DNA from: Verrucomicrobiia bacterium
Lineage (GTDB): Bacteria; Verrucomicrobiota; Verrucomicrobiia; Limisphaerales; UBA1319
DNA length: 64,000 bases
Direction of reading: 5' to 3'
NCBI GenBank assembly: GCA_963664225.1
Contig: OY760937.1
Coordinates: 288,001-352,000 of the forward strand
Under the pieces are notes generated by a model, which had not been told where the DNA came from, did not search any database, and saw nothing but the letters and a program-made list of their open reading frames with translations. The position numbers and the translations under genes are program-made. Every line of letters begins with the position of its first letter. Within the stretch, counting starts at the first letter, position 1. Shown piece by piece: positions 1 through 19,217 of this stretch.

Positions 1-414
1 TATCCCGAGGCCGGGAAAATGCAAAATCCCCTGGTGGACCCGATGAGCTGGATGACGGGATACGGAACACCTGCCGGGAAGAAGTCTCCGTGGGGCAATG
101 GGGATGGACGCTTTATTTATCCTCCTTTGGCGGCGGCTTCCGGCAACCCTGCCAGCCCCGTGATGGAGGAGCCGGTCGATTCGATTCGTTGGGAACAACT
201 GCGCGATGGCATTGAAGACTATGAGTATCTGACGATCCTTCGGAACAAATTGAATCAGCGCCGCGCGACCTTGAGCGCTGAAAAGGCGCAGGAATATGAA
301 AAGCTGCTCGAGGTTCCGGAAAACATCACGAAGAGCATGACCGAGTTCACCCCTGATGGTGGGCCGATTGAAATGCGCCGCGACCAGATTGCCCGGGCGA
401 TTGAGACGATGTAG
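1..414 (+). CDS. DUF4091/GH123-like C-terminal domain protein, 5'-truncated by the window edge
   Basis: Frame is open from base 1. GDGRFIYPP...SIRWEQLRDGIEDYEYL resembles the DUF4091 C-terminal motif. Confidence 0.6.
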   Translation, partial: YPEAGKMQNPLVDPMSWMTGYGTPAGKKSPWGNGDGRFIYPPLAAASGNPASPVMEEPVDSIRWEQLRDGIEDYEYLTILRNKLNQRRATLSAEKAQEYEKLLEVPENITKSMTEFTPDGGPIEMRRDQIARAIETM

Positions 415-435
415 GAATTCCAGTTCGATCGAATT

Positions 436-1713
436 ATGAAGAAATCAGTATTTATCAACCCAAAGCGCATTATTGCTTTACTTGGTGTTGCGGTCCTGTC
501 AGCCACGGTGCTGGCCCAGGAAACCATTTTACAACCACAGGCCAAGCCGGGACAAGCCGCGGTTGGGAGCAATGCCTTCGACTGGCCAAACTGGCGGGGA
601 CCGACCCATGACGGCGTTTCACACGAAACCAAGCTGAATTGGAAGTGGTCGTCAGAGGGACCAAAGAAATTGTGGCAAACGACGGTGGGGAAGGGGATGT
701 CCTCCTTCGCCGTGGCGCAGGGCAGGGCTTATGCCATGGGCAATCGGGAGGACGTGGATACGGTCTATTGTTTCGACGCTGAGACGGGGAAAGAGATTTG
801 GAAACATCCCTATCCATGCCCGCTGAACCCGCTGGCATACGAGGGTGGTCCCAGTTCGACTCCCGCTGTGGAGGACGGCCGGGTTTATACATTGAGCAAG
901 GCTGGAGATTGTTTTTGTCTGGATGCCGCGACTGGAAAAGTGATCTGGTCCAAAAAGTTCGATGCGCCCCCAACCACCAAGGAGGATTACAAAGTATGGT
1001 GGGGGTTTGCGGGTTCACCGTTGATCGAAGGCACTCAACTGATCCTGTCCGTCGGAACCGCGGGTGTGGCCCTCAACAAGATGACCGGCGATGTCCTTTG
1101 GGATAATGGACCTGGTCGTGCGGGTTATTCGTCGCCGGTGCCTTTTGTTATGGGCGCGGAACGGTTATTTGCAAAACTGAGCGGGCATGAAATCGTGGTC
1201 GCGAAAATGAGCGACGGCAAAGTATTATCGCGGACCTTGTGGCGGACCACGTGGGATCAAAATGCGCCGGATGTTCTTGTCTCAGGAGGGAAGATGCTGG
1301 TTGCCACAGGACATGGAGTGGGCGCTGCGCTGTTCAATGTCACCACAAACGCTCTGGTTCCGCTTTGGAATGTTAAGAGCCTGCGCACCGAACTTTCGAC
1401 GCCGGTGCTCTGGAAAAATCATGTTTATGGATTCGATAAGAATCAATTGGTCTGCCTGGACTGGGAAAGTGGCGCCGTAAAGTGGGCGGCGGAAGAGACC
1501 CGGCAGGGTTCATTGATAGTGGCGGATCAAAAACTCATCGTGATGCAGGAGGACGGAACATTGCTTATTGCCGAGGCCACCCCGGAGGCGTTCAAGCCCG
1601 TGGCCAAGGCACAGGTTCTGGACGGTAGGTGCTGGTCTGTCCCTGTTCTTTCCAATGGAAAAATGTTCTTGCGCAACGCTGCGGGAATCGTGGTCTGTCT
1701 GGACTTGCGGTAA
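436..1713 (+). CDS. Secreted PQQ-binding-like (BamB-type) beta-propeller protein
   Basis: Signal peptide, DWPNWRGP motif, repeated CxDAxTGKxxW blades, C-terminal WSVPVLSNGKMFLRN. Confidence 0.85.
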   Translation: MKKSVFINPKRIIALLGVAVLSATVLAQETILQPQAKPGQAAVGSNAFDWPNWRGPTHDGVSHETKLNWKWSSEGPKKLWQTTVGKGMSSFAVAQGRAYAMGNREDVDTVYCFDAETGKEIWKHPYPCPLNPLAYEGGPSSTPAVEDGRVYTLSKAGDCFCLDAATGKVIWSKKFDAPPTTKEDYKVWWGFAGSPLIEGTQLILSVGTAGVALNKMTGDVLWDNGPGRAGYSSPVPFVMGAERLFAKLSGHEIVVAKMSDGKVLSRTLWRTTWDQNAPDVLVSGGKMLVATGHGVGAALFNVTTNALVPLWNVKSLRTELSTPVLWKNHVYGFDKNQLVCLDWESGAVKWAAEETRQGSLIVADQKLIVMQEDGTLLIAEATPEAFKPVAKAQVLDGRCWSVPVLSNGKMFLRNAAGIVVCLDLR

Positions 1714-1850
1714 GACGGCAATGAACACAGTGGGGTGTTTGCCTGGCATGCAGATGGATGCGGAGTAGATGTGAAAATGTATTGTTTGGTCGGGGCGTTT
1801 TTTCAAGTGCTCACTGGATGTTTCTTATCGTCACGCCAGCTTTTTAAGCC

Positions 1851-4800
1851 ATGAATTACACTATGAAAACCTGGGGATGCCTCTTTGCCGGGTTGCTGGC
1901 AGGCCTTGTCTTTTTGGGCAAGCCCGTTTCCGCGGCGAATGTCCTATCGGCAAACGATATCACAACAAACCGGCAACCCGCTAAATTTGCCGCGTTCCAA
2001 TTCGGCACACCAACCTCGGCTCATCGTCCTGGATTTACCAAGGTCACGATCAAAGACGCGTTCACGACTGAAAAGGGCTATGGTTTCCAGTCAACGGAGG
2101 GATTGCTGGAGTATGATCGCGGCGGCTCCGAAATTGTCCGTCCCAACGATGAATACACCGCCAGCGTGTATGGCGCATACCGATTCACCTCGGATATCAC
2201 ATGCGCCCTGGTCGAAGGAACCAAAGGCAATGCCTTCATGGTGGCCATGCCCGATGGAGATTATACGGTGTGGTTAATTGCAGGCGACGCCGAATGGGAA
2301 CCGCCGTTGTTCGAGGTTTGGGCAAACGGCCAGAAGAAAGTCGGAGTGAACATCCCGCGCGCGCGTTTTATTTTCATGGAGCCGTTTCAAGCGCGCGCGA
2401 CCAACGGACTATTGCAGATCGATTTGAAAGGGGAGCATGGTTGGGTTCTCAATGGTTTGGTGGTGGGCAGGGAAGGCCCTGAACTTGCCGAAACCGTCGC
2501 AAAACTGCAGCGCGACATTTTCTTCCTAACCGGGCAGGAGCTGCCGAGTTGGAAGGAGCGCAAATCCGCCTCACCCAATCCGCCTCTGGAATGGACTTCC
2601 GCCGAACAACAACAGGGCTACGTCGTCTTCCCAGTCGATTACACCGAATTGATTCTCCCAAGCTTCACGCCAACCCGCGCCATGATCGGCCAGCCGTTAA
2701 CCGCGTTTGCCACACCCGGGGAAATCGAGCCTGCGACATTCTGTGTTTCTGCCGGCAAGAATTTGGGAGAAGTCCGCGTGGAATACTCCGGCTTCGTGGG
2801 GGAACAAGGCAATCAAACCATCGCACGCACCAACGTGAGCATCCGCACTGTCCGTTGCTGGCCTCAACGCTTGAGCGGCTGGGGAGGCAATGGCGATTAC
2901 AGCGTGGTGCCGGAGGTCCTCGATCCCGTGGGCGGTCGGGCTTCTCGTGTGCAAGAGGGCCAGGTCAAGCAATGGTGGCTCACGGTAAATGTGCCGCAGG
3001 ATACCCCTGCGGGACGTTATCGCATGACACTGACGGTTCAGCCCGAGAATGCACCACCGACGGTTCTGGAGTGGAAGCTGCTTATTCTGCCCTTCTCGCT
3101 CAGCCGTCCCGCTGACAGGCATTGGGGCACATGGCTCGATACCTTCCCGCCGGTCGGAGGTTTGTCTGGCCCGGAACGGCGTGGACGCAATCTGCCTTCG
3201 GAAAGGGACCGCCTGGCCCGCGCCGACATGGCAGACTATCGGGAGCACGGTTTCGATCTGGTTCTGTTGAATTATTACTTTGGCGCGCAGGAGAATCCGG
3301 ATGGCAGCTTCACCTATGACACCTCGCAGCTTGCGCGCGATCTGGAGTACTGCAAACTCCTTGGCACCCGCGCGCCAGTGGTGCTGACCATTGAATACGC
3401 CTGCCGGGATTTCGAATATCGCTTCGCGGAGCCGGGGCAAAAACATGTTCCTGGCACCTTCAGTCCCAAGGCGCACAAGGCCATTGTTGGCCTGGTAAAG
3501 CACATCCGGGACGACGCGCAACGCCACGACTGGCCCAAGCTATACTTTTTCCCAATAGATGAACCGGGCAACAATAAAACGGATAACCGGATGCTGTTCG
3601 CCCAAAACGTGTTGGATTTCGTCCATGAAGTCCCCGGCTGTCAGACGGCCACCACGCTGACCGCAGGTGAAGTACAGCGCCTGGGCGACCGTGTGGATGT
3701 CCGGATTTACGCCTACGGAAATTACAATCGCACCAAGGTTCTGGAAGAAACCCGGCACGGTCATCCATTCTGGTATTACGAAAATGGCATGTTTTACGCA
3801 CACAGCCCCACCGCCTCGCGCAACATGACGGGATTTGAGTTTCTGAGATCAGGCGCGGAAGTGGCCACAGCGTGGGGTTTCTCCGCCACCCAGGCCAATC
3901 CTGAAAATGACTTCGATGGCGGGCATAAGGACTGGAACGTGATCTTCCCTGGCGTGGACAGGCCAACGCCGACCATTTACTGGGAGCTATGTCGCGAAGG
4001 GGTGGATGATTACCGCTATGTGACAACGCTCCAGGAGAAAATTCGCCAGGCCAGAGAAAGCGGGCAGATTGAATCCGCACGACGCGCAGAAGCCGTCCTG
4101 GCGCCGATCATCGATCCCAAAGCAACTGCGGTCAGTCAACCACAGGCCTTTGCCCGATACCGTTGGCGCATTGCGCGTGAGATTCTGAATCTGATGGGTC
4201 ACCAAAAGCTGGCCCTCTCATTCCCCGCCGTGGTCAAAAACTCGGCGGCTCCTGAAAAAACAGGGCCAAACCTCATTGAAGACCCTTCTTTTGAGAAGGG
4301 TCCGCAAGACGACAGGTTTCCGAGTCCGAACTATCAGATCGCCGACCGTTATTCGAAACTGGAATCCAAACCAGTGGACGCATTGAGCGTGACAGACGAA
4401 TCAGCGCATACAGGACGGTATTCCTTGAAATGGGATTTCAGCAAGGCCGCAGGCAAAGGCTCCCTCTATGACCGGAATCGTTACCTCATTGTCAATGTCC
4501 AGGTGCCGGCTGAGGCGGCGATCAAGCTGAGAGGCAAGCGCGTAAAAGTGGGCTGCTGGTTCAGGATCGGCAGCGGTTCACTCGTGCCTGGCATGAACCT
4601 CCGTCAGTCCGGAAAGGGCGCCTACCTGGCCGGAATTGAATACAGGGGAGGTGTGGCGGATCCAGCCGTGTGGAACCTCTTCCTGTCCGAAGGCCGCCTG
4701 CGCACTGATTTCGAGAACCTCGATATTCACATCTCCTGCCGCATTCCCGAAGACGATGTTGAGTTAGCCCAGAAATCCCACTTCTACATCGACGACGTCT

Positions 4801-5117
4801 TTCTCCAGGCCATCGAGGAACCGGTGCTTGCTGTAGCGACACCACTCGATGAGTATTATTCGGGCGAAACCGTTCCGTGGAATGTCAAAGCGGCTTCCGC
4901 GGCCCCGGTGAAGGTGCAGCTTGTGTCCCCGGAACGAATCGCCGCCGAGTGGACGGGTGAAATCGCAAACGGATCGCTGAACGGCTCTTTCGAAACCCGC
5001 AAAATAAAAGCCGGAATTTATACTCTGCGAGGGGTCATCGATTCACCACAAGGATCGCAAACCGCGGAGCAGCAGATCATTCTCTCTCCGGATCCATTTG
5101 GGCAGTTGGAGCCTTGA
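1851..5117 (+). CDS. Large secreted putative glycoside hydrolase (GH123/DUF4091-like) with accessory carbohydrate-binding-like modules
   Basis: Signal peptide, FPIDEP catalytic-like motif, TIYWELCREGVDDYRY (DUF4091-like), NLIEDPSFE CBM-like start in the C-terminal part. Confidence 0.6.
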   Translation: MNYTMKTWGCLFAGLLAGLVFLGKPVSAANVLSANDITTNRQPAKFAAFQFGTPTSAHRPGFTKVTIKDAFTTEKGYGFQSTEGLLEYDRGGSEIVRPNDEYTASVYGAYRFTSDITCALVEGTKGNAFMVAMPDGDYTVWLIAGDAEWEPPLFEVWANGQKKVGVNIPRARFIFMEPFQARATNGLLQIDLKGEHGWVLNGLVVGREGPELAETVAKLQRDIFFLTGQELPSWKERKSASPNPPLEWTSAEQQQGYVVFPVDYTELILPSFTPTRAMIGQPLTAFATPGEIEPATFCVSAGKNLGEVRVEYSGFVGEQGNQTIARTNVSIRTVRCWPQRLSGWGGNGDYSVVPEVLDPVGGRASRVQEGQVKQWWLTVNVPQDTPAGRYRMTLTVQPENAPPTVLEWKLLILPFSLSRPADRHWGTWLDTFPPVGGLSGPERRGRNLPSERDRLARADMADYREHGFDLVLLNYYFGAQENPDGSFTYDTSQLARDLEYCKLLGTRAPVVLTIEYACRDFEYRFAEPGQKHVPGTFSPKAHKAIVGLVKHIRDDAQRHDWPKLYFFPIDEPGNNKTDNRMLFAQNVLDFVHEVPGCQTATTLTAGEVQRLGDRVDVRIYAYGNYNRTKVLEETRHGHPFWYYENGMFYAHSPTASRNMTGFEFLRSGAEVATAWGFSATQANPENDFDGGHKDWNVIFPGVDRPTPTIYWELCREGVDDYRYVTTLQEKIRQARESGQIESARRAEAVLAPIIDPKATAVSQPQAFARYRWRIAREILNLMGHQKLALSFPAVVKNSAAPEKTGPNLIEDPSFEKGPQDDRFPSPNYQIADRYSKLESKPVDALSVTDESAHTGRYSLKWDFSKAAGKGSLYDRNRYLIVNVQVPAEAAIKLRGKRVKVGCWFRIGSGSLVPGMNLRQSGKGAYLAGIEYRGGVADPAVWNLFLSEGRLRTDFENLDIHISCRIPEDDVELAQKSHFYIDDVFLQAIEEPVLAVATPLDEYYSGETVPWNVKAASAAPVKVQLVSPERIAAEWTGEIANGSLNGSFETRKIKAGIYTLRGVIDSPQGSQTAEQQIILSPDPFGQLEP

Positions 5118-5174
5118 ATGCAATGTTTTTTCAAGCTGGTCAAAAGGACCAGCTCAACCTATTGGGATTCCACA

Positions 5175-5220
5175 GTTACCAACATTATTATCTGGTTACA
5201 AAGTTTATTATCCGAGTACA
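5175..5220 (-). mobile_element. Tn7-like transposon end (right-end-like) of a second element extending leftwards
   Basis: Minus strand reads TGTACTCG (8-bp terminus), then GATAATAAACTTTGTAAC, CA, GATAATAATGTTGGTAAC. These two 18-bp repeats at 20-bp period resemble Tn7 TnsB sites. Confidence 0.7.
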
Positions 5221-5222
5221 AA

Positions 5223-5296
5223 TATCCGTCCGTAATTAAGGATGTCACAAATCGTGCCTGGAGCATGGGCTCAATTCGTAATTAAGGACTGTCACA
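5223..5296 (+). repeat. Left end of the Tn7-like element: terminal 8-mer plus two spaced TnsB-like sites
   Basis: TATCCGTC + CGTAATTAAGGATGTCACA (5231-5249), and CGTAATTAAGGACTGTCACA (5277-5296). Confidence 0.8.
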
Positions 5297-5428
5297 ATAT
5301 TTTGCTTTTCAATTTCTGGTCCGAATCGACCTCACGGCCGTAATAATTTGATTGAATCTTAGGCGTGTCCACGATCCCGTGAAAAGTGTGTTTAGGTTTC
5401 GGGTCGTCTTTTTCGGTTGTTTCCGTGA

Positions 5429-8400
5429 TCATGGTATTTCAAACAACCGATAAAACTTGGAAATGTCCGACAAACCATTCGTGTCGGTGATAAACGTTGG
5501 TCCACCTGTGCCAGGGATTTTATCGCTCACCGGAACCCAATCTTGAGCTGGCAGATTCGTTGACATTTCCAGGCGATAAAAAGCTCCCGCAGCACCAGGG
5601 AACTGCAAAACGACATTCCGGTCTTTCACTTCCATTCCACTGATTAAAAGTTGAGGACGAGGACTCATGTTTAGGATCGACGCTGAAGCCTTGGTCGTGT
5701 TCAAAACGGCGTTCACTGGATTGGCCAAGTTTAGATAGAAGTTTTTGACCGCAGCCGAATCGGGAATTCCATATATTGGGATCGAAACGCATGCGTTTGT
5801 AACCCCGGGTGGCAAAACGAGGGTTCCTGACTTGCCCAGATAATCGCGGCCCGCAGCCGCGTTGCCATTTTGGGTGAAATAATCCACACTGGTTTGTGCG
5901 GCGTTGGTTCCAGACATTTGAATATTAAACAGTGCGTTGGTGATGCTGTCGGAAGCCATGGCCAGCGAGACATTGGTGACTGTAATGCCGCGCAAATTGC
6001 ATTCGAGGAGCGTGCAAGTGGCTGACGCAATTGGAGTTGATGTTGGCGAGCCAAGACTGACATTCAGATAAAATTCCAGGTTGGACCTTATGAGACCTTT
6101 ATCAATAATTACAACCGAATAGGTTTTTCCGGTTGCCCCAGGCTCGAATGTCAGCATTCCTATCAAAGGTGACATATAATCTTGAGAAGAAAGAGCTGTC
6201 CCGTTGATAGTGCGACAATACAGAGTGATTGGCTTAGTGCCAGGCACGTCAAGCATAACGTTAAAGTTGGCCTTAATACCGTTTTGGCGAGGGACAATCA
6301 GATTGCTTACGGATACGGAGGGCATTGGATAAATTGTTTCGGTGGAAACGATTTGGTTATTGGATGGATCGATATCCGGTTCGTTTTGCGAAATCGACGC
6401 CATGAATGGGATCGTCCCGGCTGTTGGAACCGTCGATACAACTGTGATCCCAACACTCGAACCGGACGCCATTGTCCCAACGTTGCAAATGACAACTCCG
6501 TTGGTTTGTGTGAAGGATCCCTGGGTCGAGCGGTTCGTGACAAGCGTTGAGCCATTGGCCAAAATATTGCTGAATGTAACCCCGGTGGCGGTTAAAGGCC
6601 CATCATTCGAAATCTTAAATGTGTTGGTTAGAGTGCCTCCGGCGATTGCCCAATTGTTGGTGGTTTCCAAAATGAGATCGCCCACAGCGGGGATTTTTGA
6701 AGTGCGTAGTAAGAAAAATTGGCAACGGAGTGAGGGAAAAGGGATATTGTAAGGATTTTCTGAAGTGGCAAAAGCCAGGGTTCCGGCCCCGCAACGGGTT
6801 AAGCTGTGAGCGATGCCTGATGCCCCGGGAATGGTGATTTGCCAAAGAACATTGCTCATATTTGTAGAGCAGGCGGCCAGCGTATAATTTGGATAGGGCG
6901 CATAACCGCCCTGGCCGAGGAAATAAGCTCGTCCATTTTCCACATCGGAGGCAACCAAACCAGATGCGGGATATACGCCCAGGTTAGTATTATTTAAAAG
7001 ATCCAGCGCATGTCCATTCGCTGCAATCAACAGATTGTCCTCTGTTTGGAAGTCACCCGCAAAACCGGCAAGATTAGTCAACACACCACCGATGCCAGAG
7101 GCATCAATGCCATATGCGGTAAAGGTCCCATTGACGGCATACAAGGTGGAACCATCTGGAGAGGCCTGAATTTGAAATGGACTTCCAAGGACAGGCCCGA
7201 TCACTTGCGGACGCTTGATCCCATCGTCAAATATGGCCACCTGCTGGCTGTAACTTCCATACCAAGGAGCCATGGACACAGTGATCGAGCGAGGTCGGTC
7301 AGGCAGGGGAGCAAAATCGGCCACGATGTAATTGACATCCATTCCAATATCGAATTGAAAATCGTTCGTCCAGGTCTGAATGTTAATTCGCGCAACGAAT
7401 CTCAGTTGGGTGGTTCCAACATACAAGAATTGGCTGTCGCTGGTTATTGCGATTTTGCCGGGTTCGAAGCCTGTGGGGAGGGATTTCTCCACAGTCCCAG
7501 TTTGCGGATCGATTTGAACAATGCTATTGCTGTAGGCTCCGGTGTTTAGCACTGTGGCGAACAGCTTATCTCTGATCGGATCGTAAACCATATCCCCGAT
7601 GCTCAGGTCGATTTTCTGATAAAACTGGACAAGGCTCGATTGCGCTGCCGAATTGTCAGCCATATCAAGATCCGGCTCATTGGCGGCCACGCGGACATAA
7701 TTCGAGAATGAACCAACGACATCCGGTCGCAGCAGAATGGAGATTTGTGCTGAGGCGCCAGGGGCCAATGTGCCCAATTGTGCCATCACGGTGCCATTAT
7801 TGTTGGAAATGGAGCCTTGGGTTGATGATGTCGATACGAATCTGGCTCCGGCAGGCAGGATGTCCCGCGCAACAATGCCAGTGGCCACGCCAGGGCCTTT
7901 ATTGCTGATGGTAAGGGTGATCGTATAATTCGTCATCAGGGTCGTTAAAGTCGGCGCCGATTGTGTGACCATCAGATCCGCAGGTTGATTGGTTGGCACC
8001 AATGGTGTTTGGATGGAAAATAGCTGCCCTCCTGTGGTGGCAAATGCCAGACCACGATCCCCCCATCGAACCAATTGTTCGGGCGCTCCAATTATGCCTG
8101 TCACCAACATGGATCCCATCAACTCATAGTTGTTCAAGGAATAGGCGGTAATCGTCGTCATGGAGTCATTTGGGATCACTTTCATGTAAAATACGCGGCC
8201 CGAAGCCATATCAGGACAGAGATGATTTGCATTCCTAGCCAGCCCCGGGAAAGTGGCCACATGTATCATTGATTCCGGATCCACTACCTCGCCCCATGCA
8301 AAAAACAGCAGACCACCGCCAGACCGCATCTCGGGCCCTCCGTCATACGTCAGCACATTAGCGGTTGAGGACACCGCATTGGTGCCATCCAATTGCACGC

Positions 8401-11400
8401 GAGTGATGCCTCCATTGTAGCCATAGAAAACATTGGGAGAAAGGGATGGCTGAATTAGAGAAATCTCAGGCGAAATGTTTAGTGCGGTGGCGATGCCGTT
8501 AGAAATGATTTTAACCCCGCGCCCGCTGGGAGTTCCGTAATTATAATGTTGTGAGAGCAGAACTGACTGGGCCTGATCCTGAAGAACAATCATTTCGCTC
8601 AGGTCATAGCTGTAAATCGAGTCTTGAAATGTGACGGCACTCGTCTTCAGGTCCACTTGCACGATGGTTGCTGTGCTTTGGAGATACGCATAAAGGTAGC
8701 GGCCGTCTGGGGAGATCGCCAGGGCGCCAGGTTCTGATCCCACCGCAATGGGATTGCCGGGATGCAGGCTCTCGGGATCGATCTTGACGATGCAGTTTCC
8801 ATAGGTTGTATCAGAGCCAGAAACGCTGGCATAAAGCATGCGATCGACGGGATTATAAATAAGATCATTGGCCTTAAGCAGCAGGTGGGCAACGGAGTTG
8901 GAGGCTGTGGAATCAAGGACCGTGGTCAACCAGCCAGACTCTTTATGCGCCAAATTTGAAGAATCCGACGTTGAGGCAATGCTCACGACATTGGTCAACA
9001 CCCCAAGGTCCTTGGTTCGGACGGTCACTTTCAGTGATGTTTCGCCATGAGGTGGAATTGCGCCGAACAAGGCGACGAGGATGCCGTTATTGTTTTGTGC
9101 TGTGCCCTGGCTGGGTGTGGCGTTCACCAGTGCTGCTCCGGCAGGCAATAGATCAGTCAAGATCACATCCTGAGCGCTCATGCTCCCGGAATTGGTTACG
9201 AGGATGCTATACGATATATCGCTTCCGGGTGTGGCGAGCGCCGGGCCGCTCTGGGTTACGGCCAATTGTGCTGAAGTTGAATCCGCGGCAAACGGGGAGC
9301 GAATCAAAAAGATTTGACCGCCCGTGGTGGCAAAAGCCAGTCCATTTGTTCCCCATCGCACAAGGTTTTTTGCACTGCCAACGATTCCAGGGATTGTTTG
9401 GGATCCTTGCAGAGTGAATGTCTCGATATCGCACGCATAAATGGCCGTTTGGTTTCCTTGTTGTGTTAAAAAGTAAATGATTCCTGCATCCGGATCGGGT
9501 GCGGGTGCTCCGCTGGCCAGTTTTCCCGGAACAGGGTATTGCCCGATGGGTTTCTGTTTCGCAGGGTTAAATGCAGTTCCATTGGAAACGTACATTGACC
9601 CTCCGCTGAGAATGCCGCCAGTTTCAAATCCTGGAACCAAAGCCAGGTCAGCGAGATTTGTCCGTGCAACCTCTCCATCATAAATGAAATCTAGAGGCCC
9701 GAATTGGCATTGTCCGGCAATGGCCAGGCTGGCGGGGCTGTTTGGCAAACCAATCAAGCTGATTGCATAAAAATTATAAGGGTTTTGAGGTAAAGAAAAT
9801 TCCAGGTCGGGCATTTGTGATGCCAGATTCAAGCGCTGGACGGAATAGCCGTTTTTTACGGCGATGTAGATAAATTGATTACTGGCCGAAAGGGCCATTA
9901 AGCCTGGGGCCGTGTCCACGGGGATGAAAGCCTCCACGGTGGCGGAGTAGGGATTGAGCCGCATCACTGTGTTTGATTCGACTGCAGCAGTTGCCGGGAC
10001 GGTCGCGTAAATCCGGTCTGTTCCCGGATCATACACGAGGTTGCTGACAGTGGCATTGAGGGACACAATGGATACAAATCCTACATTAAACGGGTTGCTT
10101 TGCCCCAATGTCTGGCCGCTTTGGGCGCGCACAGCAACATTTGTTGCGGCAGTGTTTATCATGATTGTTCCACTCCACCGCCCATTGGTAAAATGATCTG
10201 TTTGCGTTGGAACCAAGCTGTCCAGTGGCAACCCGATTGGAGATAGCGATGCAATGCCGGAAAAACCATCCAATGTGTCACCGCTTTTGTTCTGCGCCAG
10301 AATCGTAGCCGCAAATGGTTGATTGGCGGTTTGATTCAATGGAATTCGGGCAAAGGCGAAATGATCCAAATGTGTGTCGTGGATCAAAATCGTGCCGCTG
10401 GCATTGACGAAGCCTGATGCGGACGCGGAGACTGTGACCAATTGGTTTTGCCTGGGGCTGGAGCCAGGCGGGACGGTCAATTGGATCACGACCGAAGTCT
10501 GACCGGCTGGCAAGACCACAGTGACTGGAACCTGCAAGAAGCTGGAATCGCTGCCGGCCAGATTGATCACTAAATTGGTTTCGAGAGATCCTGCAATCAT
10601 GATCGTCGCATTGGTTGCATCTCCTGAACCTTCGAATAAACGATCAGGCACCTGCAGAACCAGATCATTTGCCTTGGCGCCAGAGATTGTGATCGATCCA
10701 CTTGCAGTTCCTTCGGAACCCGCGGATGCCGTCACCGTTAACTTTCTGCTGCCTAATATGACAGGGGCATTGGGCGCGTTGAGACTAAAACGGACATTGG
10801 TTTGGCCTGCCGGAATTCGAACATAAAGCGGCACATCCAACAAACTGGGATCGCTTGAACGCAATTCCGCCTGGAAATTCGAACCTGCGGGGACGCCTAT
10901 CGAGAGTTGGGCCTGGTTAGTGATTGTGCCTCCTTGCGGGATTATTTCCGACGGCAAGGTCAATTGCGGCAGCATGGGTGCGCTAAGATTTGTAATGAGG
11001 CCTTGTGTCATCAACGAAAGGGAATTCGAGGCTGTAATGGTGACAAACTGAATGCCGTCGATAACTGAATCGTTAAAATTTGTGAGGTTAAAACGGGCCG
11101 AAACATTGCCAGCCGGAATGGTAACCGTGGACGGTCCACCAATCTTCGATGGATTGTCAGAATTGAGATTGAAAACCAAATCAAAATCAATAGCGCGTGA
11201 AATGGCAATTGTTGCCGGGTGAATTTCCGACACAGTGCTCAAGGTCGTCGGCGGCAATGTCAGCATGACAGATGTGTTCAGGGTCTCGAATGGATTGCTG
11301 TTTCCAGGATGGCCATTCTCATCATCCACATGCAGGAACACATTGCTGGCGGAAGCGTTGACAGCCAAAAAGCCGCTCCAAACACCGTTCGTCAAGTTGA

Positions 11401-12298
11401 CCGCAGCCGGGTAAATCTGAACCGGTGTATAATTGGCAGCAAATGGAAGGCTGAGTTGTGAATTCAAAACACCGAACGACGGGAAAGCTTGAATCCAATC
11501 CATAGCCTGCCGATGGTTAAAGTTGCCTTGCCGTTGATACGACTTATACGCGATTCGAGCCGAAGTTGGCATGCCAATCCAATCGGACGATCGTATAGGA
11601 ACAGGATTGGTTATAAAAAACGGATAGCCCGTTGATGCGCAGAAGAAATCGATCAGCCCATTCGTATGGTTTAGCAAAGACATCGCAATCGGGCTGAGAT
11701 TATTTGGGTTTTCCATTATCGGCCCATCCGACGAGAAATTTGGATAGACTCCAGGGGGGACACCTCCTGGTATTATCGTGAAAACCGATTGGGGTGCGCA
11801 TATTGTGCCGGCGGGAAAAATAAAAGTCCTGACTGGCTGGGGCCAGTGTTCCAAATCATAATAGACTGCCTTCCAGCCAGAGATATCGACTGGGTTTGTG
11901 GATGGATTTGTGAATTCAACTCTCGAGTAATTGCCATTGTCCACTTCTGAAATAACCAGTGGCGGGATCGACAAGATTTGCGCGGAGACAGACACGCTGC
12001 CGTTGAAATCTGCAACTACTTGCTCTGCGCTGTCCCGGGCAGTTATTGTTGCTTTAATTGGAGCGCCCGCTACTTGAGGTGATTCAATGGGATTCCACGA
12101 AAAATGATCGAGCGAGGTAGCCTCCGTGTGCGAACAGATGGCCGACACCAAGACGCTCAACAGGACCGGAAAAATGAATGACTTTCGGCTTGTTTTGATA
12201 ATCTGGGAGAAATCAACGTTCTGGTTGCCAGACTCCGTTTTAAGGCCAGCCTGGCCGCCAATATTAAGCAATTTTTCCTCGCGAAATGAATGCTCCAT
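5429..12298 (-). CDS. Giant secreted/surface protein: lamin-tail-like domain, Ig-like repeats, 3x (beta-propeller + DUF11-like), 2x Calx-beta-like
   Basis: ORF is open to 12466; the ATG at 12298 has GAAGGA upstream. Hydrophobic signal ends SHTEA. LVISEVD...VDISGW motif, three LVYDP...RWGxxGLAFAT propellers each followed by a DUF11-like unit, T.NG.A...DY Calx-beta motifs, C-terminal FYRL. Confidence 0.8.
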   Translation of the reverse strand: MEHSFREEKLLNIGGQAGLKTESGNQNVDFSQIIKTSRKSFIFPVLLSVLVSAICSHTEATSLDHFSWNPIESPQVAGAPIKATITARDSAEQVVADFNGSVSVSAQILSIPPLVISEVDNGNYSRVEFTNPSTNPVDISGWKAVYYDLEHWPQPVRTFIFPAGTICAPQSVFTIIPGGVPPGVYPNFSSDGPIMENPNNLSPIAMSLLNHTNGLIDFFCASTGYPFFITNPVPIRSSDWIGMPTSARIAYKSYQRQGNFNHRQAMDWIQAFPSFGVLNSQLSLPFAANYTPVQIYPAAVNLTNGVWSGFLAVNASASNVFLHVDDENGHPGNSNPFETLNTSVMLTLPPTTLSTVSEIHPATIAISRAIDFDLVFNLNSDNPSKIGGPSTVTIPAGNVSARFNLTNFNDSVIDGIQFVTITASNSLSLMTQGLITNLSAPMLPQLTLPSEIIPQGGTITNQAQLSIGVPAGSNFQAELRSSDPSLLDVPLYVRIPAGQTNVRFSLNAPNAPVILGSRKLTVTASAGSEGTASGSITISGAKANDLVLQVPDRLFEGSGDATNATIMIAGSLETNLVINLAGSDSSFLQVPVTVVLPAGQTSVVIQLTVPPGSSPRQNQLVTVSASASGFVNASGTILIHDTHLDHFAFARIPLNQTANQPFAATILAQNKSGDTLDGFSGIASLSPIGLPLDSLVPTQTDHFTNGRWSGTIMINTAATNVAVRAQSGQTLGQSNPFNVGFVSIVSLNATVSNLVYDPGTDRIYATVPATAAVESNTVMRLNPYSATVEAFIPVDTAPGLMALSASNQFIYIAVKNGYSVQRLNLASQMPDLEFSLPQNPYNFYAISLIGLPNSPASLAIAGQCQFGPLDFIYDGEVARTNLADLALVPGFETGGILSGGSMYVSNGTAFNPAKQKPIGQYPVPGKLASGAPAPDPDAGIIYFLTQQGNQTAIYACDIETFTLQGSQTIPGIVGSAKNLVRWGTNGLAFATTGGQIFLIRSPFAADSTSAQLAVTQSGPALATPGSDISYSILVTNSGSMSAQDVILTDLLPAGAALVNATPSQGTAQNNNGILVALFGAIPPHGETSLKVTVRTKDLGVLTNVVSIASTSDSSNLAHKESGWLTTVLDSTASNSVAHLLLKANDLIYNPVDRMLYASVSGSDTTYGNCIVKIDPESLHPGNPIAVGSEPGALAISPDGRYLYAYLQSTATIVQVDLKTSAVTFQDSIYSYDLSEMIVLQDQAQSVLLSQHYNYGTPSGRGVKIISNGIATALNISPEISLIQPSLSPNVFYGYNGGITRVQLDGTNAVSSTANVLTYDGGPEMRSGGGLLFFAWGEVVDPESMIHVATFPGLARNANHLCPDMASGRVFYMKVIPNDSMTTITAYSLNNYELMGSMLVTGIIGAPEQLVRWGDRGLAFATTGGQLFSIQTPLVPTNQPADLMVTQSAPTLTTLMTNYTITLTISNKGPGVATGIVARDILPAGARFVSTSSTQGSISNNNGTVMAQLGTLAPGASAQISILLRPDVVGSFSNYVRVAANEPDLDMADNSAAQSSLVQFYQKIDLSIGDMVYDPIRDKLFATVLNTGAYSNSIVQIDPQTGTVEKSLPTGFEPGKIAITSDSQFLYVGTTQLRFVARINIQTWTNDFQFDIGMDVNYIVADFAPLPDRPRSITVSMAPWYGSYSQQVAIFDDGIKRPQVIGPVLGSPFQIQASPDGSTLYAVNGTFTAYGIDASGIGGVLTNLAGFAGDFQTEDNLLIAANGHALDLLNNTNLGVYPASGLVASDVENGRAYFLGQGGYAPYPNYTLAACSTNMSNVLWQITIPGASGIAHSLTRCGAGTLAFATSENPYNIPFPSLRCQFFLLRTSKIPAVGDLILETTNNWAIAGGTLTNTFKISNDGPLTATGVTFSNILANGSTLVTNRSTQGSFTQTNGVVICNVGTMASGSSVGITVVSTVPTAGTIPFMASISQNEPDIDPSNNQIVSTETIYPMPSVSVSNLIVPRQNGIKANFNVMLDVPGTKPITLYCRTINGTALSSQDYMSPLIGMLTFEPGATGKTYSVVIIDKGLIRSNLEFYLNVSLGSPTSTPIASATCTLLECNLRGITVTNVSLAMASDSITNALFNIQMSGTNAAQTSVDYFTQNGNAAAGRDYLGKSGTLVLPPGVTNACVSIPIYGIPDSAAVKNFYLNLANPVNAVLNTTKASASILNMSPRPQLLISGMEVKDRNVVLQFPGAAGAFYRLEMSTNLPAQDWVPVSDKIPGTGGPTFITDTNGLSDISKFYRLFEIP

Positions 12299-12872
12299 AA
12301 TGAGTCCTTCAGAAATGTATGTCACGGCCTGCTTGTGGAGGATTGTATGCTTTTCGTTATTCAAGTCAATTATAATACTCCGGCAAAAATTCAAGAAAAG
12401 TGCGGTCTGACAGAGGTCATGAGAAAACATGGAGGCAAAGAGCGTCAAAAAGTGAACTCCTCTCATCGTGATTTGTGACTTTTATGCCCGCTGATGTGTT
12501 TCTGGGGCGTCATTGCAGATTCTTGCTTTAAAGTTTCTTAAAGATGTACGCAAGTTGAGCGGTAATTTTCCTGCCTCTTCCTTCACTTCCTGGGGACTAT
12601 TTACTGGGCCATACGGAAATTGCTACTCTGTGGAAGTCGCAAATGCGTGGGAAAATCTGGTTTTTCGCCAATACAAGTGGATTCGTAAGCGAGTTAAGTG
12701 AGCGGGGAGATGTGTTCCGATACTTCAGATCGTGCCTCCCTGCAGTAAGATGGTCTTGCCGTTTACCTGAGCTCATTTCCAGCCTGTGAATAATCATCAG
12801 AAGATTCCGGAGGAACCTCAAAATAAACCAGGTGTATTTGTGAATTGCGCCATGCCTGGCCCAATCCAGATT

Positions 12873-12919
12873 TGTGACATACCTCAATTAAATGTGACAT
12901 CCATAATTACGGACGGACA
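12873..12919 (-). repeat. Right (glmS-proximal) end of the Tn7-like element: TGT terminus plus two contiguous TnsB-like sites
   Basis: Minus strand reads TGTCCGTC CGTAATTATGGATGTCACA TTTAATTGAGGTATGTCACA. Confidence 0.85.
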
Positions 12920-12943
12920 AAGGCACTGTTAACTTCATTTCAT

Positions 12944-14803
12944 TTATTCGACGGTGACGCTTTTGGCCAGGTTGCGGGGCTTATCCACGTCACAGCCGCG
13001 CGCGACGGCGATGTGATAGGCCAGGAGTTGGAGCGGCACGATGGCGAGCAACGGGAACACGGGATCCATGGTGGCGGGAATGGAGATGACGTGATCGGCC
13101 AGGCGCGCCACGTGTTCGTTGCCTTCTGTGGCCAGGGCGATGATGGGGCCTTTGCGGGCTTTGATTTCCTGGAGATTGCTCAGTGTCTTATCATACCAAG
13201 TGCCTGAAGGAGTGAGAATGACCGAGGGTGTGTGCTCGTCGATCAGGGCGATGGGGCCGTGTTTCATTTCCGCAGCGGGATAGCCTTCGGCGTGGATGTA
13301 AGAGATTTCCTTGAGCTTGAGGGCTCCTTCGAGGGAAGCGGGAAAGCAGTATTGTCGGCCGAGAAAGAAGAAGTTTTGGGCGTCCTTGAATTTCAAGGCC
13401 ACGGTTTTAATTTCTTCGGACAGGGTGAGGACTTTTTGAAGTTGCTCGGGGACAGCTTCCAAGGCGTGAATCAGTTCGGCGCCGCGGCCTGATGCAAGCA
13501 TCCGCATGCGTCCCATGAACAGGGCCAGCAGGGCCAGGACGGTGACCTGGGAGGTGAAGGCCTTCGTGGAGGCGACACCGATTTCCGGGCCCGCATGGAG
13601 GTAAATGCCGCCATCGGCTTCGCGTGCGATGGTGCTGCCGACGACGTTGCAAATGGAGAGGACCTTGTGCCCCCGCCTTTTGGATTCGCGCAGGCCGGCG
13701 AGTGTGTCGAGTGTTTCCCCGGATTGTGTAATGGCCAGGACGAGGGTGCTTTTGTCGATGGGCGCGTTGCGGTAGCGAAATTCGCTGGCGTATTCGACTT
13801 CGACCGGGATGTGGGCAAATTCTTCAATGAGGTATTCGCCAAGAAGTGCGGCGTGCCAGCTTGTGCCGCAGGCGATGAGGACGATGCGGTCCACGGCGCG
13901 CAACTCGGCGGCGGTGAGATTTAAACCGCCGAATTTGGCTGTGGCTTCGTCGTGATCGATGCGTCCGCGCAGGGCGTTGGCGACGGTCTGGGGTTGCTCA
14001 AAGATTTCCTTGAGCATGAAATGCGGGAATGCGCCCCGTTCGATGGCCTCGGCGCCGTATTCGATCTGGCTGATCTGGACCTTGGCGGTGTCGGAGCCCA
14101 GGCTGGTGACGTTGAAACGCTCGCGGGTGAGGGTGACGACGTCGTAGTCGTTGAGATAGACCACCTGGCGGGTGTGGGCGACCATGGCACTCGCGTCGCT
14201 GGCCAGAAAGTATTCACCCTGACCCACGCCGACGATGAGCGGGGAACCGCGGCGGGCGCCGACCATGATTCCGGGATGATCGGCGCTGATGACGGCCAGG
14301 CCATAGGTGCCAATCACGTCACGAAGGGCGTCCATGACGGCTTGTGTGAGAATGGCATCCTCCGAAGCGCCTGCGGCTTTGAGTTTTTGATAGCACTCGC
14401 CAATCAAATGGGCCAGGACTTCGCTGTCCGTTTGAGAATGGAAAATGTGTCCAGCCTTGAGCAGACGTTCCTTGAGACGCTCGAAATTCTCAACCACTCC
14501 GTTATGGACCACGGCAATGCGGCCCGATTGGTCGAGATGCGGATGGGCGTTTTCGTCAGACGGTGGTCCGTGCGTGGCCCAGCGGGTATGCCCCAGACCC
14601 AGGGAACCGGTCGGGGAACCAAGCGCCAGACTGCGTGCCAGACCCTCGTCGATTTTTCCGCGTTTTTTGACGGTTTCCAGCCGACTATCTTCGAGCACGG
14701 TGATGCCCGCGCTATCGTAGCCCCGGTATTCGAGCCGTCGGAGGCCTTCCAGCAGGATTGGAGAGGCCGATTTGCTGCCAATATAGCCAACGATTCCGCA
14801 CAT
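12944..14803 (-). CDS. glmS: Glutamine--fructose-6-phosphate transaminase (isomerizing)
   Basis: N-terminal MCGIVG, LEYRGYDSAG, GHTRWATHG, C-terminal DKPRNLAKSVTVE. Confidence 0.99.
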   Translation of the reverse strand: MCGIVGYIGSKSASPILLEGLRRLEYRGYDSAGITVLEDSRLETVKKRGKIDEGLARSLALGSPTGSLGLGHTRWATHGPPSDENAHPHLDQSGRIAVVHNGVVENFERLKERLLKAGHIFHSQTDSEVLAHLIGECYQKLKAAGASEDAILTQAVMDALRDVIGTYGLAVISADHPGIMVGARRGSPLIVGVGQGEYFLASDASAMVAHTRQVVYLNDYDVVTLTRERFNVTSLGSDTAKVQISQIEYGAEAIERGAFPHFMLKEIFEQPQTVANALRGRIDHDEATAKFGGLNLTAAELRAVDRIVLIACGTSWHAALLGEYLIEEFAHIPVEVEYASEFRYRNAPIDKSTLVLAITQSGETLDTLAGLRESKRRGHKVLSICNVVGSTIAREADGGIYLHAGPEIGVASTKAFTSQVTVLALLALFMGRMRMLASGRGAELIHALEAVPEQLQKVLTLSEEIKTVALKFKDAQNFFFLGRQYCFPASLEGALKLKEISYIHAEGYPAAEMKHGPIALIDEHTPSVILTPSGTWYDKTLSNLQEIKARKGPIIALATEGNEHVARLADHVISIPATMDPVFPLLAIVPLQLLAYHIAVARGCDVDKPRNLAKSVTVE

Positions 14804-14973
14804 AATTATTCAACGCGAGAGTTATTTTGTCAGATTCCGTTTATCCGGCTCCATCATGCCAGACGACGCTGTTATAGGATATGGGGGCAGGTCCTGTTTT
14901 ATTGATGATTCTTGCCCTCAACACCCATCTCATGATAGAGTGTGACCAACGATTTGCAAGCGACCAAAATTTT

Positions 14974-16278
14974 ATGCCAAATTCCATTTCTCAATCTGGA
15001 GGGGGCCGGGTACTCAGCATCATCATGGGAGGCGGGCAGGGCAGCAGGCTCTTCCCGTTGACAAAGGAACGCGCAAAGCCCGCAGTGCCGCTGGCGGGAA
15101 AATATCGTCTTGTGGACATCCCCATCTCCAATTGCATTAATTCAGGTTTAAAGCAGATTTATCTGCTGACCCAGTTTAATTCCGCCTCCCTGCATCGGCA
15201 CATTTCCCAGTCCTATAAGTTCGACCAGTTCACCAATGGTTTTGTGGAGATTCTCGCGGCCGAACAGACCTTCTCCGATTCCTCATGGTATCAGGGAACG
15301 GCCGATGCCGTGCGCAAGAACCGGATGCACTTCATGAATCAGGATTTTGAATATGCCCTGATTCTCAGCGGCGACCAGCTTTACCGCATGGATTACCGGA
15401 AAATCCTGGCCCGGCATATCGAGAATAAGGCGGATTTGACCGTGTCCACGATTCCAGTGACCCGTCAAAACGCGCAGGGTCTGGGTATCATGCAAGTCGG
15501 ACCTGATTATCGCATCACGCGTTTTGTCGAGAAACCGACCGATCCGCAGGTCCTGGATACTTTACGGATCCCGCCGGACCTGTATAAAGGTTTGGGGATA
15601 GAGGGCACCGAGGAGTTGTTTCTGGCGTCAATGGGTATTTACGTGTTCAACCGGGAAGTGATGTTTCAACTGCTTGATAACACGTTAACGGATTTTGGAA
15701 AACATATTATACCAAACGTCATCAACACGCACCGTGTCTTTTCCGATGTGTTTCAAGGCTATTGGGAGGATATTGGAACGATCCGCTCGTTTTTTGAGGC
15801 AAATATCGAGCTGACCGAGGAATTGCCCCGATTCAACTTTTTCGACATGGATTCGCCCATCTTCACCCGGCCCCGTTTTTTGCCGGCGTCGAAAATAAAC
15901 GGAGCGCACGTCGATCATGCGATCATTTCCGACGGGTGCATCATTAATTACGCGCACATCAGCCGGAGCATTGTTGGTTTGCGCAGTCTGGTGGATCGGG
16001 GCAGTTCGCTGCATCGCGTGGTGATGCTCGGAGGCGATTATTTCGAGAGCCAGGCTTCGATTGCCAAAAGCATGGCTGAGAACATCCCGCGCATCGGCAT
16101 TGGACGCAACACACGGATTGAAAACGCCATCATTGATAAGAACGCCCGTATTGGAAACAATTGTGTGATCTCACCTGCAGGCAAGCCCGATCAGGTCACC
16201 GAGGACAAGTTTTACATTCGCGATGGGATTGTCATTATTCCAAAAAACGGAGTGATCCCCGACGGAACGGTCATTTGA
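14974..16278 (+). CDS. glgC: Glucose-1-phosphate adenylyltransferase
   Basis: GGGQGSRLFPLTKERAKPAVP, WYQGTADAV, LSGDQLYRMDY, YWEDIGT. Start moved to ATG 14974. Confidence 0.97.
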   Translation: MPNSISQSGGGRVLSIIMGGGQGSRLFPLTKERAKPAVPLAGKYRLVDIPISNCINSGLKQIYLLTQFNSASLHRHISQSYKFDQFTNGFVEILAAEQTFSDSSWYQGTADAVRKNRMHFMNQDFEYALILSGDQLYRMDYRKILARHIENKADLTVSTIPVTRQNAQGLGIMQVGPDYRITRFVEKPTDPQVLDTLRIPPDLYKGLGIEGTEELFLASMGIYVFNREVMFQLLDNTLTDFGKHIIPNVINTHRVFSDVFQGYWEDIGTIRSFFEANIELTEELPRFNFFDMDSPIFTRPRFLPASKINGAHVDHAIISDGCIINYAHISRSIVGLRSLVDRGSSLHRVVMLGGDYFESQASIAKSMAENIPRIGIGRNTRIENAIIDKNARIGNNCVISPAGKPDQVTEDKFYIRDGIVIIPKNGVIPDGTVI

Positions 16279-16330
16279 TCCGCCGGGAAGATACCGCATT
16301 CTGGCGCTGGGTCTGAAAAGACCTGGTGAC

Positions 16331-16358
16331 TTGCGAATTCAGGATTTTAACTTATACT
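16331..16358 (+). promoter_or_regulatory. Putative sigma70 promoter for the SOD gene
   Basis: TTGCGA-16 bp-TATACT. Confidence 0.5.
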
Positions 16359-16473
16359 GCCGGGTATTATGAGAGCCGTCAGGGCAGCAGACAAAACAGG
16401 GTCGCAAATCATCCAATGAATTGCGACAGGGAAGCCCGAACGGCGGATGACAATGAAAATCGAGGATACCAAA

Positions 16474-17088
16474 ATGGCATATCAGCACGCGAATAAGCAG
16501 GAAGCATTGCTTGCAAAAGTCAAAGGCAAAACCGGCAAGATCTCTGACAAAACCCACGAGGAGCATCTGAAGCTCTACACGGGCTACGTCAACAAAACCA
16601 ACGCAATCCTCAAGGAGTTGGAGGAACTATCCAAAACACTGGATCCGGCCAATGTGGCCCACGCCAACCAGATTTACAGCGTCATGCGCACCCTGAAGCT
16701 GGAGTATTCCTTCGCTCTGGGTGGCATCGTCAATCATGAGATTTACTTTGGCATCATGGGCGGCAAAGGTGGTCCGGCCACCGGCAAGGTGGCTCGCCTG
16801 ATCGAGAAGAGCTTCGGTTCCTTCGATGCTTATAAAAAGGATTTGAAGGCCACCGCCATCTCGGCGCGCGGATGGGCCTGGACGATTTACGATCCCAAGT
16901 CTGACCTGCTTTTCAACCACCTGGGTGATTCACAGAGCACTTACTCCGTCTGGGGAGTCACTCCGATTCTCGCCCTGGACACTTACGAGCACGCCTATTA
17001 CGCGGATTTCTTTACCGCGCGCGGCGCCTACATCGATGAATTTCTGAACATCGTCGATTGGGATCAGGTCAACGCCAATTTGAAATAA
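16474..17088 (+). CDS. Fe/Mn superoxide dismutase family protein
   Basis: Metal-ligand motifs THEEH, NHEIYF, DTYEHAYY; GAGGA upstream of ATG 16474. Confidence 0.9.
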   Translation: MAYQHANKQEALLAKVKGKTGKISDKTHEEHLKLYTGYVNKTNAILKELEELSKTLDPANVAHANQIYSVMRTLKLEYSFALGGIVNHEIYFGIMGGKGGPATGKVARLIEKSFGSFDAYKKDLKATAISARGWAWTIYDPKSDLLFNHLGDSQSTYSVWGVTPILALDTYEHAYYADFFTARGAYIDEFLNIVDWDQVNANLK

Positions 17089-17104
17089 CCGCGCTTGGGG
17101 TCAT

Positions 17105-17806
17105 TCATTTCGCTTTGTCAACGACTCCTTCGGGAGTCGTTTTTTTTGCAGTTTGAGTTTCTTTTTTGCGCCACGCTCTTTCGGTCTTGTTTAGCTCGCG
17201 GCGCAGGGCGTCCTCCGCGGACCACCCTTTGCTCTGTGCATATTGGACGAGTGCCAGCAATGAAGGCCCCAACTGCGCCTTGGTGGGTGAGAAGGGTGGT
17301 GGCACGATTTTTTCGGCCGCGTTCAACCCGGCTTTGCGGGCTTTCTTGAGGAGTTTTTCCGCGCGCATCAAGGAGGGCAGGTGACGGGGGACGCCATCCA
17401 GCGCGGAGGGACGTTCATGAACGGTCCCTTTTTTCTCGGTTTTCTTGATTTGATCCCATTGAGTCCAGATGGCATCGATGGTTTTGACCTTGGAATCGCC
17501 AAAGACATGGGGATGGCGGCGGATTAATTTATCGACCAGTTGCCGGGCCACGGTTTCGAAGTCAAAGGCCTTCCGCTCCCGGGCCATCTGACAATGAAAG
17601 ACCACCTGGAGGAGCAAGTCGCCCAGTTCCTCCGCCATTTCCACGTCATCACCGGCTTCAATGGCATCGATCAATTCGTAAACCTCCTCGATGGTATGAA
17701 GGCTGATGGAGCGGTGGTCCTGTTCGCGATCCCAGGGGCAGCCATCGGGCGCGCGCAAACGGGCCATTACTTCCAACAATTGATCGATGGCTTTTTTCTT
17801 TTTCAT
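17105..17806 (-). CDS. mazG: MazG family nucleoside triphosphate pyrophosphohydrolase
   Basis: LRAPDGCPWDREQ, EEVYE, EELGDLLLQVVFH, KLIRRHPHVF. Start overlaps the proB stop (TGATG). Confidence 0.92.
   Translation of the reverse strand: MKKKKAIDQLLEVMARLRAPDGCPWDREQDHRSISLHTIEEVYELIDAIEAGDDVEMAEELGDLLLQVVFHCQMARERKAFDFETVARQLVDKLIRRHPHVFGDSKVKTIDAIWTQWDQIKKTEKKGTVHERPSALDGVPRHLPSLMRAEKLLKKARKAGLNAAEKIVPPPFSPTKAQLGPSLLALVQYAQSKGWSAEDALRRELNKTERAWRKKETQTAKKTTPEGVVDKAK
17120..17147 (+). terminator. Rho-independent terminator for sod
   Basis: AACGACTCC-TTCG-GGAGTCGTT hairpin followed by a T run. Confidence 0.85.
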
Positions 17807-18888: not shown

Positions 18889-18966
18889 CGGTAGGTAGCA
18901 TGGGAGGGCGGATCGAGTCAATGACGCGGAGGGCGTAACGACTTGAGAGGGTTCCAATTTGCGCGT

Positions 18967-19197: not shown

Positions 19198-19217
19198 AAA
19201 CAATGGGATGCAGCTTG

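Follow-up and report, generated by a model that had tools for sequence, protein, structure and literature searches.

What is a single giant gene doing immediately behind glmS in a poorly studied environmental bacterium, and can the DNA that carries it still move? The locus in question occupies positions 5223 to 12919 of a 64,000-nucleotide stretch, hereafter the window, from a Verrucomicrobiia bacterium of the Limisphaerales (assembly GCA_963664225.1, contig OY760937.1, positions 288,001 to 352,000). The genome to which the window belongs is a single contig of 5.78 Mb that is 96.35% complete. We conclude that the segment is probably a non-autonomous Tn7-like transposon that was put behind glmS by a TnsD-type pathway, and that it is most likely stranded in this genome. 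Such a pathway, which is site- and orientation-specific, would have inserted the element next to glmS, on the near side of a right-end remnant that an older Tn7-like element, of a different family, had left there. The ends of the younger element contain repeated sites of about 20 nt that are predicted to bind a transposase and that belong to an end family seen nowhere else. The features on which this description is built are given below, in nucleotides (nt) and amino acids (aa), with open reading frame abbreviated as ORF.

5223-5249, plus strand: left terminal inverted repeat, consisting of an 8-nt tip beginning TAT and site L1 (5230-5249)
5277-5296, minus strand: second left-end site, L2, spaced from the first (pattern match 5279-5296; also paired by the inverted-repeat search)
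5429-12466, minus strand: cargo gene for a putative giant secreted or surface protein; the sole interior ORF, 2345 aa
12467-12872: non-coding leader of 406 nt from the right end to the cargo ORF, with no tns remnant
12873-12892, plus strand: second right-end site, R2, contiguous with the terminal site (pattern match 12873-12890)
12893-12919, plus strand: right terminal inverted repeat, consisting of site R1 and an 8-nt tip ending ACA (TGT on the other strand)
12920-12943: spacer of exactly 24 nt from the right tip to the glmS stop, marking the insertion point
12944-14803, minus strand: glmS, with Pfam SIS and GATase domains

The sequence at 5223-5249 reads as the inverted repeat of that at 12893-12919, with 25 of the 27 positions identical, and a repeat search of the interval 4800-13300 ranked this terminal pair first among all inverted repeats (25 nt, 96%) while also pairing the second sites with each other in inverted orientation. 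A 24-nt core pattern matches the window at the two element ends and nowhere else, two matches were recovered in none of 100 shuffles, and the same pattern finds just these two places in the whole 5.78-Mb genome. The pattern for the second sites was built from L2 and R2 themselves, so its shuffle test shows merely that the pair is non-random. The sites are arranged asymmetrically. Those of the right end are contiguous (12873-12912) and step by 20 nt, while those of the left end (5230-5249 and 5277-5296) are spaced, with L2 lying 27 nt inward of the terminal repeat and a step of 47 nt. On sequence grounds these sites of about 20 nt are predicted to be transposase-binding sites, and a TnsB-like protein would be expected to bind them. 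The DNA between the ends is of foreign composition, its guanine plus cytosine (GC) content being 0.497 against 0.560 for the genome, which places it at the 1.7th percentile of 11,552 windows of the same length.

These observations bear directly on the simplest alternative, which is that the gene is native and non-mobile and that the inverted repeats around it are fortuitous or regulatory. Large proteins of the same architecture are indeed common in the order, with 15 of 40 relatives having a match to the cargo protein at E≤1e-20. Yet neither the absence of such a repeat pair from all 100 shuffles, nor the inverted pairing of the second sites, nor the extreme GC content, nor the lack of an orthologue in the relatives is what a native gene would present, and the similarity to a metagenomic copy described below (X1) breaks at the tip. 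We consider a native gene hardly credible.

The position of the element is as telling as its ends. The glmS stop codon occupies 12944-12946, the PRNLAKSVTVE codons that precede it (12947-12979) are intact, and the last 119 aa of glmS are 69-83% identical in 18 relatives. In Tn7, TnsD binds this 3' part of glmS, and we infer that a TnsD-like protein selected the target here by reading the 3' end of the gene. The end with contiguous sites faces glmS, and the cargo gene has the same orientation as glmS. Much of this had been proposed in an initial annotation made from the letters of the window, and our measurements bear it out: the inverted repeat of 25/27 was obtained again and is unique in both window and genome, the contiguous second site on the glmS side and the spaced one at the distal end were both located, and the terminus 24 bp past the glmS stop was verified together with the intact PRNLAKSVTVE codons. 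The AT-richer interior with one large ORF and no tnsABCD was likewise recovered, as a 2345-aa frame in DNA of GC 0.497 (genome 0.560) in which no tns gene was detected by Pfam or by tblastn with 12 Tns proteins.

Ends with several sites and TG/CA tips also occur outside Tn7, and no cognate transposase was identified for the ends described here. In principle the ends could come from a different DDE group with multi-site ends, for instance IS21-like or Tn5053/Tn402-like elements, and lie behind glmS by coincidence. However, the exact distance of 24 nt and the orientation are like those of the Tn7-like elements of the order (18-23 nt), which would then be a remarkable coincidence, and the ends occur only twice in the genome, hence they belong to no resident insertion sequence (IS). 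Tn5053/Tn402 elements target res sites, whereas the target here is the glmS site, and the TniB-family matches of this genome are generic ATPases. An origin from one of these other families is accordingly very improbable.

The question then becomes what the element landed beside. Directly outside the left tip there is a further feature, as follows.

5164-5220, minus strand: solo right end from a 'classical', older family of Tn7-like elements, comprising a TGT tip, a contiguous pair of 20-nt sites and a third, decayed site

The TGT tip of this solo end is read on the plus strand as the ACA that ends at 5220. It was recognized in an ungapped scan of both strands of the whole genome with the right end of a complete Tn7-like element from a relative, G148. 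A 26-mer of that right end has its genome-wide best score (21/26) at 5195-5220 and its second best (20/26) at the adjoining site, 5175-5200, with no other place reaching 20, and a 57-mer scores 43/57 at 5164-5220 as compared to 33 at the next best place in the genome. The repeat search also picked up the solo end as a tandem repeat. BLAST of the G148 right end against the genome returned the solo end at E=22 only, and given this weak rank the claim rests on the whole-length ungapped scan together with the position. No left-end partner for the solo end scores 20/26 or better anywhere in the genome; C1:110544, which has an exact match to a single site, was rejected as a partner since it has neither a tip nor a neighboring site. 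As the element is inserted between glmS and what is left of a right end of another family, the site has been used at least twice, by two different Tn7-like end families. In PMC11014353 target immunity is said to act through TnsB-binding sites, so a block against an element with a different end family is not expected.

Relatives indicate that this attachment site has a wider history in the order. A DNA-level comparison with 4300-13900 as query matched glmS only in 24 of 40 relatives and matched the interior or the ends in none, and the sequence 3' of glmS differs in each of the 19 relatives that were examined. In four of these 19, including G148 as the source of the query, a classical-type right end is located 18-23 nt beyond the glmS stop, against a background in which the best scores were 14-17/26. 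Coordinates below are local to the sequence examined in each genome, except for G148.

G148 (same order), C11:2026-41159: complete Tn7-like element of 39 kb, 23 nt past the glmS stop, within the locus C11:1991-41164
G031, 1063-1108: classical right end, 23/26, 20 nt past the stop
G020, 1032-1057: classical right end, 19/26, 23 nt past the stop
G001 (same genus), 10296-10321: classical right end, 19/26, 18 nt past the stop

Among these four, tns genes were found only in G148; the other three have no tns genes in 7-10 kb of contig, and no left end was found in them. Solo or decayed ends behind glmS thus seem to be common in the order. The G148 element carries tnsA, a 739-aa ORF in the tnsB position that has no Pfam match at E≤1e-4, tnsC and tnsD (PF15978, 1.3e-77), and it is flanked by a clean 5-bp duplication, TCTCG. 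Its sites step by 20 nt at the right end and by 70 and 52 nt at the left end. At a distance of 9 nt from its left tip there is an older solo right end that belongs to the same family as the element, and such stacking within one family is seen there although target immunity would be expected to discourage it. The ends of the window's element match this classical family at 13/26 only, and the element ends of two further relatives, G049 and G038, were considered as possible kin and showed no likeness. The relatives are too distant to supply a true empty site. Even G001, from the same genus, has an unrelated left flank, and of 9 proteins encoded downstream in G001, 5 map far away in the window's genome; with synteny lost in this way the allele that preceded the insertion is not reconstructable.

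The genome was also searched for transposition genes that could serve the element. No Tn7 core gene (tnsA, tnsB, tnsC or tniQ/tnsD) was found anywhere in it. Neither the Mu-transposase C-terminal domain (PF09299) nor TniQ (PF06527) has a match in this genome. Of 150 other genomes that were sampled in the order, 4 were positive in the TniQ search, which demonstrates that the search works in this lineage. Matches to TniB (PF05621) are limited to frames of 861 and 918 aa that are generic ATPases, and TnsA_N (PF08722) gave one weak stand-alone match under the cut-off. The integrase core domain rve (PF00665) has 18 matches, all of them in frames of 187-442 aa that are IS copies. When 12 Tns proteins from G148, G049 and G038 were used as tblastn queries there were no matches at E≤0.01 genome-wide, and in window positions 1-20000 there was noise only (E≥0.09), none of it in the non-coding parts of the element. 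The initial annotation had raised mobilization in trans and a profile search, based on hidden Markov models (HMMs), for TnsA/B/C and TniQ genes elsewhere; in this genome that search yielded no helper gene for TnsB, TniQ/TnsD, TnsA or TnsC.

With regard to the frames just mentioned, the ORF resembling TnsA_N is 203 aa long (C1:4621195-4621806, minus strand, 21 bits) and has no transposase gene alongside. The rve frames comprise 11 of 323 aa, 6 of 187 or 304 aa and 1 of 442 aa; they are multi-copy IS, none of which is near the element.

Metagenomic copies provide an independent view of the left boundary. Runs X7-X9 contain the whole stretch, and runs X10 and X11 contain it piecemeal with 0 differences, which marks them as the same strain and makes them uninformative. 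The cargo gene is partly represented, at about 90-99% identity, on contigs from two metagenomes, one of sludge (X1) and one of wastewater (X2). In X1, on the evidence of a single contig with a depth of about 5, similarity runs from 5220 inward and is preceded by 255 unlike letters, the last 30 of which resemble a transposon end that is related to the window's and faces outward like a neighbor's right end. Since similarity to X1 begins only at 5220, the left boundary is a real recombination joint. X1 also has L2 present twice, 36 nt apart, which gives it a third left-end site, and 10 differences from the window are listed between 5220 and 5400, none of which falls in L1 or L2. The TAT left tip is common to both copies. 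Outside of it the letters AAA (5220-5222) are also common to window and X1, with the flanks beyond differing. The odd left junction of AAA plus TAT, being shared in this manner, predates the split of the two copies. Models in which the tip is shifted, the end is 3 nt longer or a small deletion has occurred were each tried, and none of them fits both the window and X1. On the other side X1 leaves similarity at 12261, where its loose letters, by our own reading, still translate to a similar N-terminus; a structural break at that point was consequently rejected in favor of divergence. Coverage by X1 stops short of the right end, with 12326-12927 uncovered.

Several observations weigh against the interpretation of this segment as a Tn7-like transposon, and in particular against one that can still move. 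The tips differ, being TAT at the left and TGT at the right, and there is no 5-bp target duplication, as the left flank reads ACAAA and the right flank AAGGC. The tip of the older solo right end is just 2 nt away from the left tip of the element. According to PMC11014353, a mini-element was immobilized by mutating its TGT/ACA termini. A contig joint across 5223-12919, as an empty site would produce, was not seen in X1, X2, X10 or X11, although this is weak evidence because contigs drop rare variants. Additionally, the end family has not been seen elsewhere, and never with tns genes, in the collections searched. There were no matches in 400 other genomes of the order at ≤3 mismatches, a degenerate pattern likewise matched none of 400 phylum genomes, two exact scans of 185,579 species genomes and a scan of IMG/VR found nothing, and PLSDB returned one irrelevant 27-nt match (E=4). 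A degenerate scan of IMG/VR gave five matches, which is approximately the number estimated for chance; no second site was visible by eye within 120 nt of any of them, and the best-looking one lies inside an 801-aa ORF.

Set against the properties of a functional Tn7-like element, the segment has asymmetric multi-site ends and an oriented insertion near glmS, but it lacks the core genes and a target duplication, and of its two tips only the right one reads TGT. The TAT tip and the missing duplication argue against present mobility. In view of these two features, and of a genome that has no tnsA, tnsB, tnsC or tniQ/tnsD, a stranded element is the most likely state. As to how it arose, we estimate about an even chance that it is a full element that lost its tns genes, and we regard a cargo-only unit mobilized in trans as possible but distinctly less favored.

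The proposal in the initial annotation of a non-autonomous Tn7 derivative, or 'natural mini-Tn7', is consequently upheld in part. Position, orientation, ends and foreign DNA all agree with it, while the TAT tip, the missing duplication and the lack of a helper do not agree with a mobilizable unit. That annotation was silent on the TAT tip, on the missing duplication and on the solo end at 5164-5220, and was otherwise borne out in its own details. It had also named two signs that together would speak against a transposon, of which one has been observed so far, in that these ends were never found with tns genes in the searched collections; as to the other, the interior and the ends had no DNA-level match in any of 40 relatives.

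A true natural mini-Tn7 would be a cargo-only unit that is itself mobile among glmS sites in related bacteria and could still move given a helper of the same end family. The layout of two ends, a cargo and no tns genes is that of the laboratory vectors, and no tns remnant is present in the 406-nt leader. X1 has the same cargo and left end with a different left flank that resembles a related transposon end in tandem, and L1 and L2 are unchanged between the copies with the 10 listed differences around them. These features have to be balanced against the TAT left tip in both copies and the missing target duplication, against the lack of a helper in this genome and of a helper with such ends in any collection searched, and against the occurrence of the element as a single copy in the genome. 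Furthermore the right side of X1 is uncovered, and the X1 copy may well carry tns genes. On balance we judge that a natural mini-Tn7 is rather unlikely. A bolder version of the same idea is that we are looking at a working cargo-only satellite of a not-yet-sequenced Tn7-like family, mobilized in trans from one glmS site to another among related environmental bacteria and thereby spreading a 2,300-aa adhesin-like gene. Its TnsB would read the TGTGACA...AATTA sites and tolerate the TAT left tip, and the X1 junction would represent a second independent landing beside a related element. We think this unlikely.

Another way to obtain such a structure is by recombination. In a hybrid, the left and right ends would derive from two insertions of the same family that were joined by recombination or deletion, with the tns genes being lost and the flanks left mismatched. 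Mismatched flanks are the usual mark of recombination between two copies, stacking at the site is seen both here and in G148, and the left end of X1 has one site more than the left end of the window, which indicates that the ends have been remodeled. However, the genome contains no second copy or further end fragment of the family, and the left junction of AAA plus TAT is common to X1 and so is older than the split of the copies. A hybrid is for these reasons improbable, and we retain the placement of a Tn7-like element by a TnsD-type pathway as the preferred interpretation.

The relationship of this element to known systems can be described at several levels. Prototype Tn7 at attTn7 likewise lies a short fixed distance past the glmS stop with its right end facing glmS, and it likewise has contiguous right-end sites, spaced left-end sites and a TGT right tip, a description that joins established knowledge of Tn7 with PMC11014353 and PMC9881144. 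In contrast to prototype Tn7, the element in the window is without tnsABCDE, has a left tip of TAT and lacks a 5-bp duplication. The G148 element shares with it the placement at glmS, the 20-nt step of the right end, the spaced left end and a solo right end at the left tip, but differs in having tns genes, a length of 39 kb, the clean TCTCG duplication and another end family. Laboratory mini-Tn7 vectors, in which Tn7L and Tn7R arms are supplied with transposase in trans, have the same architecture at the glmS site, whereas the element described here is natural, has no known helper and has a non-canonical left tip. Islands that form by repeated insertion and decay at Tn7 attachment sites, where one insertion after another uses a single site and leaves behind cargo and remnants of ends, have reportedly been described by Parks & Peters (2007, J Bacteriol 189:2170), and the Tn6022/AbaR islands treated in PMC11014353 are of this kind. 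Those islands are in Proteobacteria and involve known transposase families, while here there is no known autonomous member for the younger family and TniQ is rare in the lineage (4 of 150 sampled genomes).

The locus is thus a well-delimited example of a known process and presents no new mechanism. What it adds is a case, from an environmental order that has received little study, in which the glmS attachment site has repeatedly served two or more Tn7-like end families. Elements of this kind that lack a transposase, and solo ends, will go unnoticed in surveys that take transposase genes as their starting point. For example, the survey of Benler et al. started, according to PMC8649781, from HMMs of core proteins, and that paper gives few hosts in the Verrucomicrobia (5 species) and the Planctomycetes (1). 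Our literature search found no paper on a transposase-free Tn7-like element at glmS in such a lineage, with the reservation that the supplements of PMC8649781 may list Verrucomicrobia or Planctomycetes ends. If a helper for the new end family is found, then the two would constitute a natural helper/satellite pair and a source of orthogonal Tn7 ends.

The cargo itself is best read as an adhesin-like or other cell-surface protein that was acquired from a related lineage. The likely start of the protein is M57, at 12298, as homologues align from residues 59-62, and a hydrophobic stretch was read by eye at residues 98-111. Pfam recognizes an LTD domain at residues 169-273, three DUF11 domains (approximately 1070-1169, 1497-1609 and 1937-2038) and two Calx-beta domains within the last 266 residues, and NCBIfam adds beta-propeller-like stretches around 1625-1710, such a stretch preceding each of the DUF11 domains. 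The closest homologues, which are 54-58% identical, are on four metagenome contigs that show no glmS and no element ends, but whose flanking DNA is limited (753, 17 and 2,864 nt upstream). Across the 40 relatives the best protein matches are 26-35% identical over long stretches.

In the leader that separates the cargo ORF from the right end, no tblastn match to the 12 Tns proteins, which came from three genomes of the order, was obtained even at E≤1, a 96-aa ORF at 12597-12887 has no Pfam or NCBIfam match, and no Rfam family or tRNA was detected. Promoter and terminator scans, together with the Rfam and tRNA searches, gave nothing informative.

A number of minor observations concern the relatives and the family of the cargo protein. 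In G049 a Tn7-like module is located away from glmS (C7, approximately 577-584 kb; local 3131-9907) and comprises tnsA, a pair of ORFs possibly representing a split tnsB, a short tnsC of 367 aa and two TniQ genes side by side. The same genome has a second, broken glmS-like copy in pieces at C21:43732-45554, with 2-3 in-frame TGA codons, so that a genome with a broken glmS-like copy also carries Tn7-like genes. In G037 a 513-aa reverse-transcriptase ORF (RVT_1; local 4957-6498) lies about 4 kb 3' of glmS. Within the cargo gene, direct DNA repeats at window positions 6760-9361 are spaced by 1272 and 1290 nt, which is explained by three tandem modules that each consist of a beta-propeller-like stretch and a DUF11 domain. 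A paralogue of the cargo is present in the same genome at C1:3506754-3510695, in a 2386-aa frame that is 26-31% identical and has a GC content of 0.558, and the same-genus G001 has a similar frame of 2358 aa.

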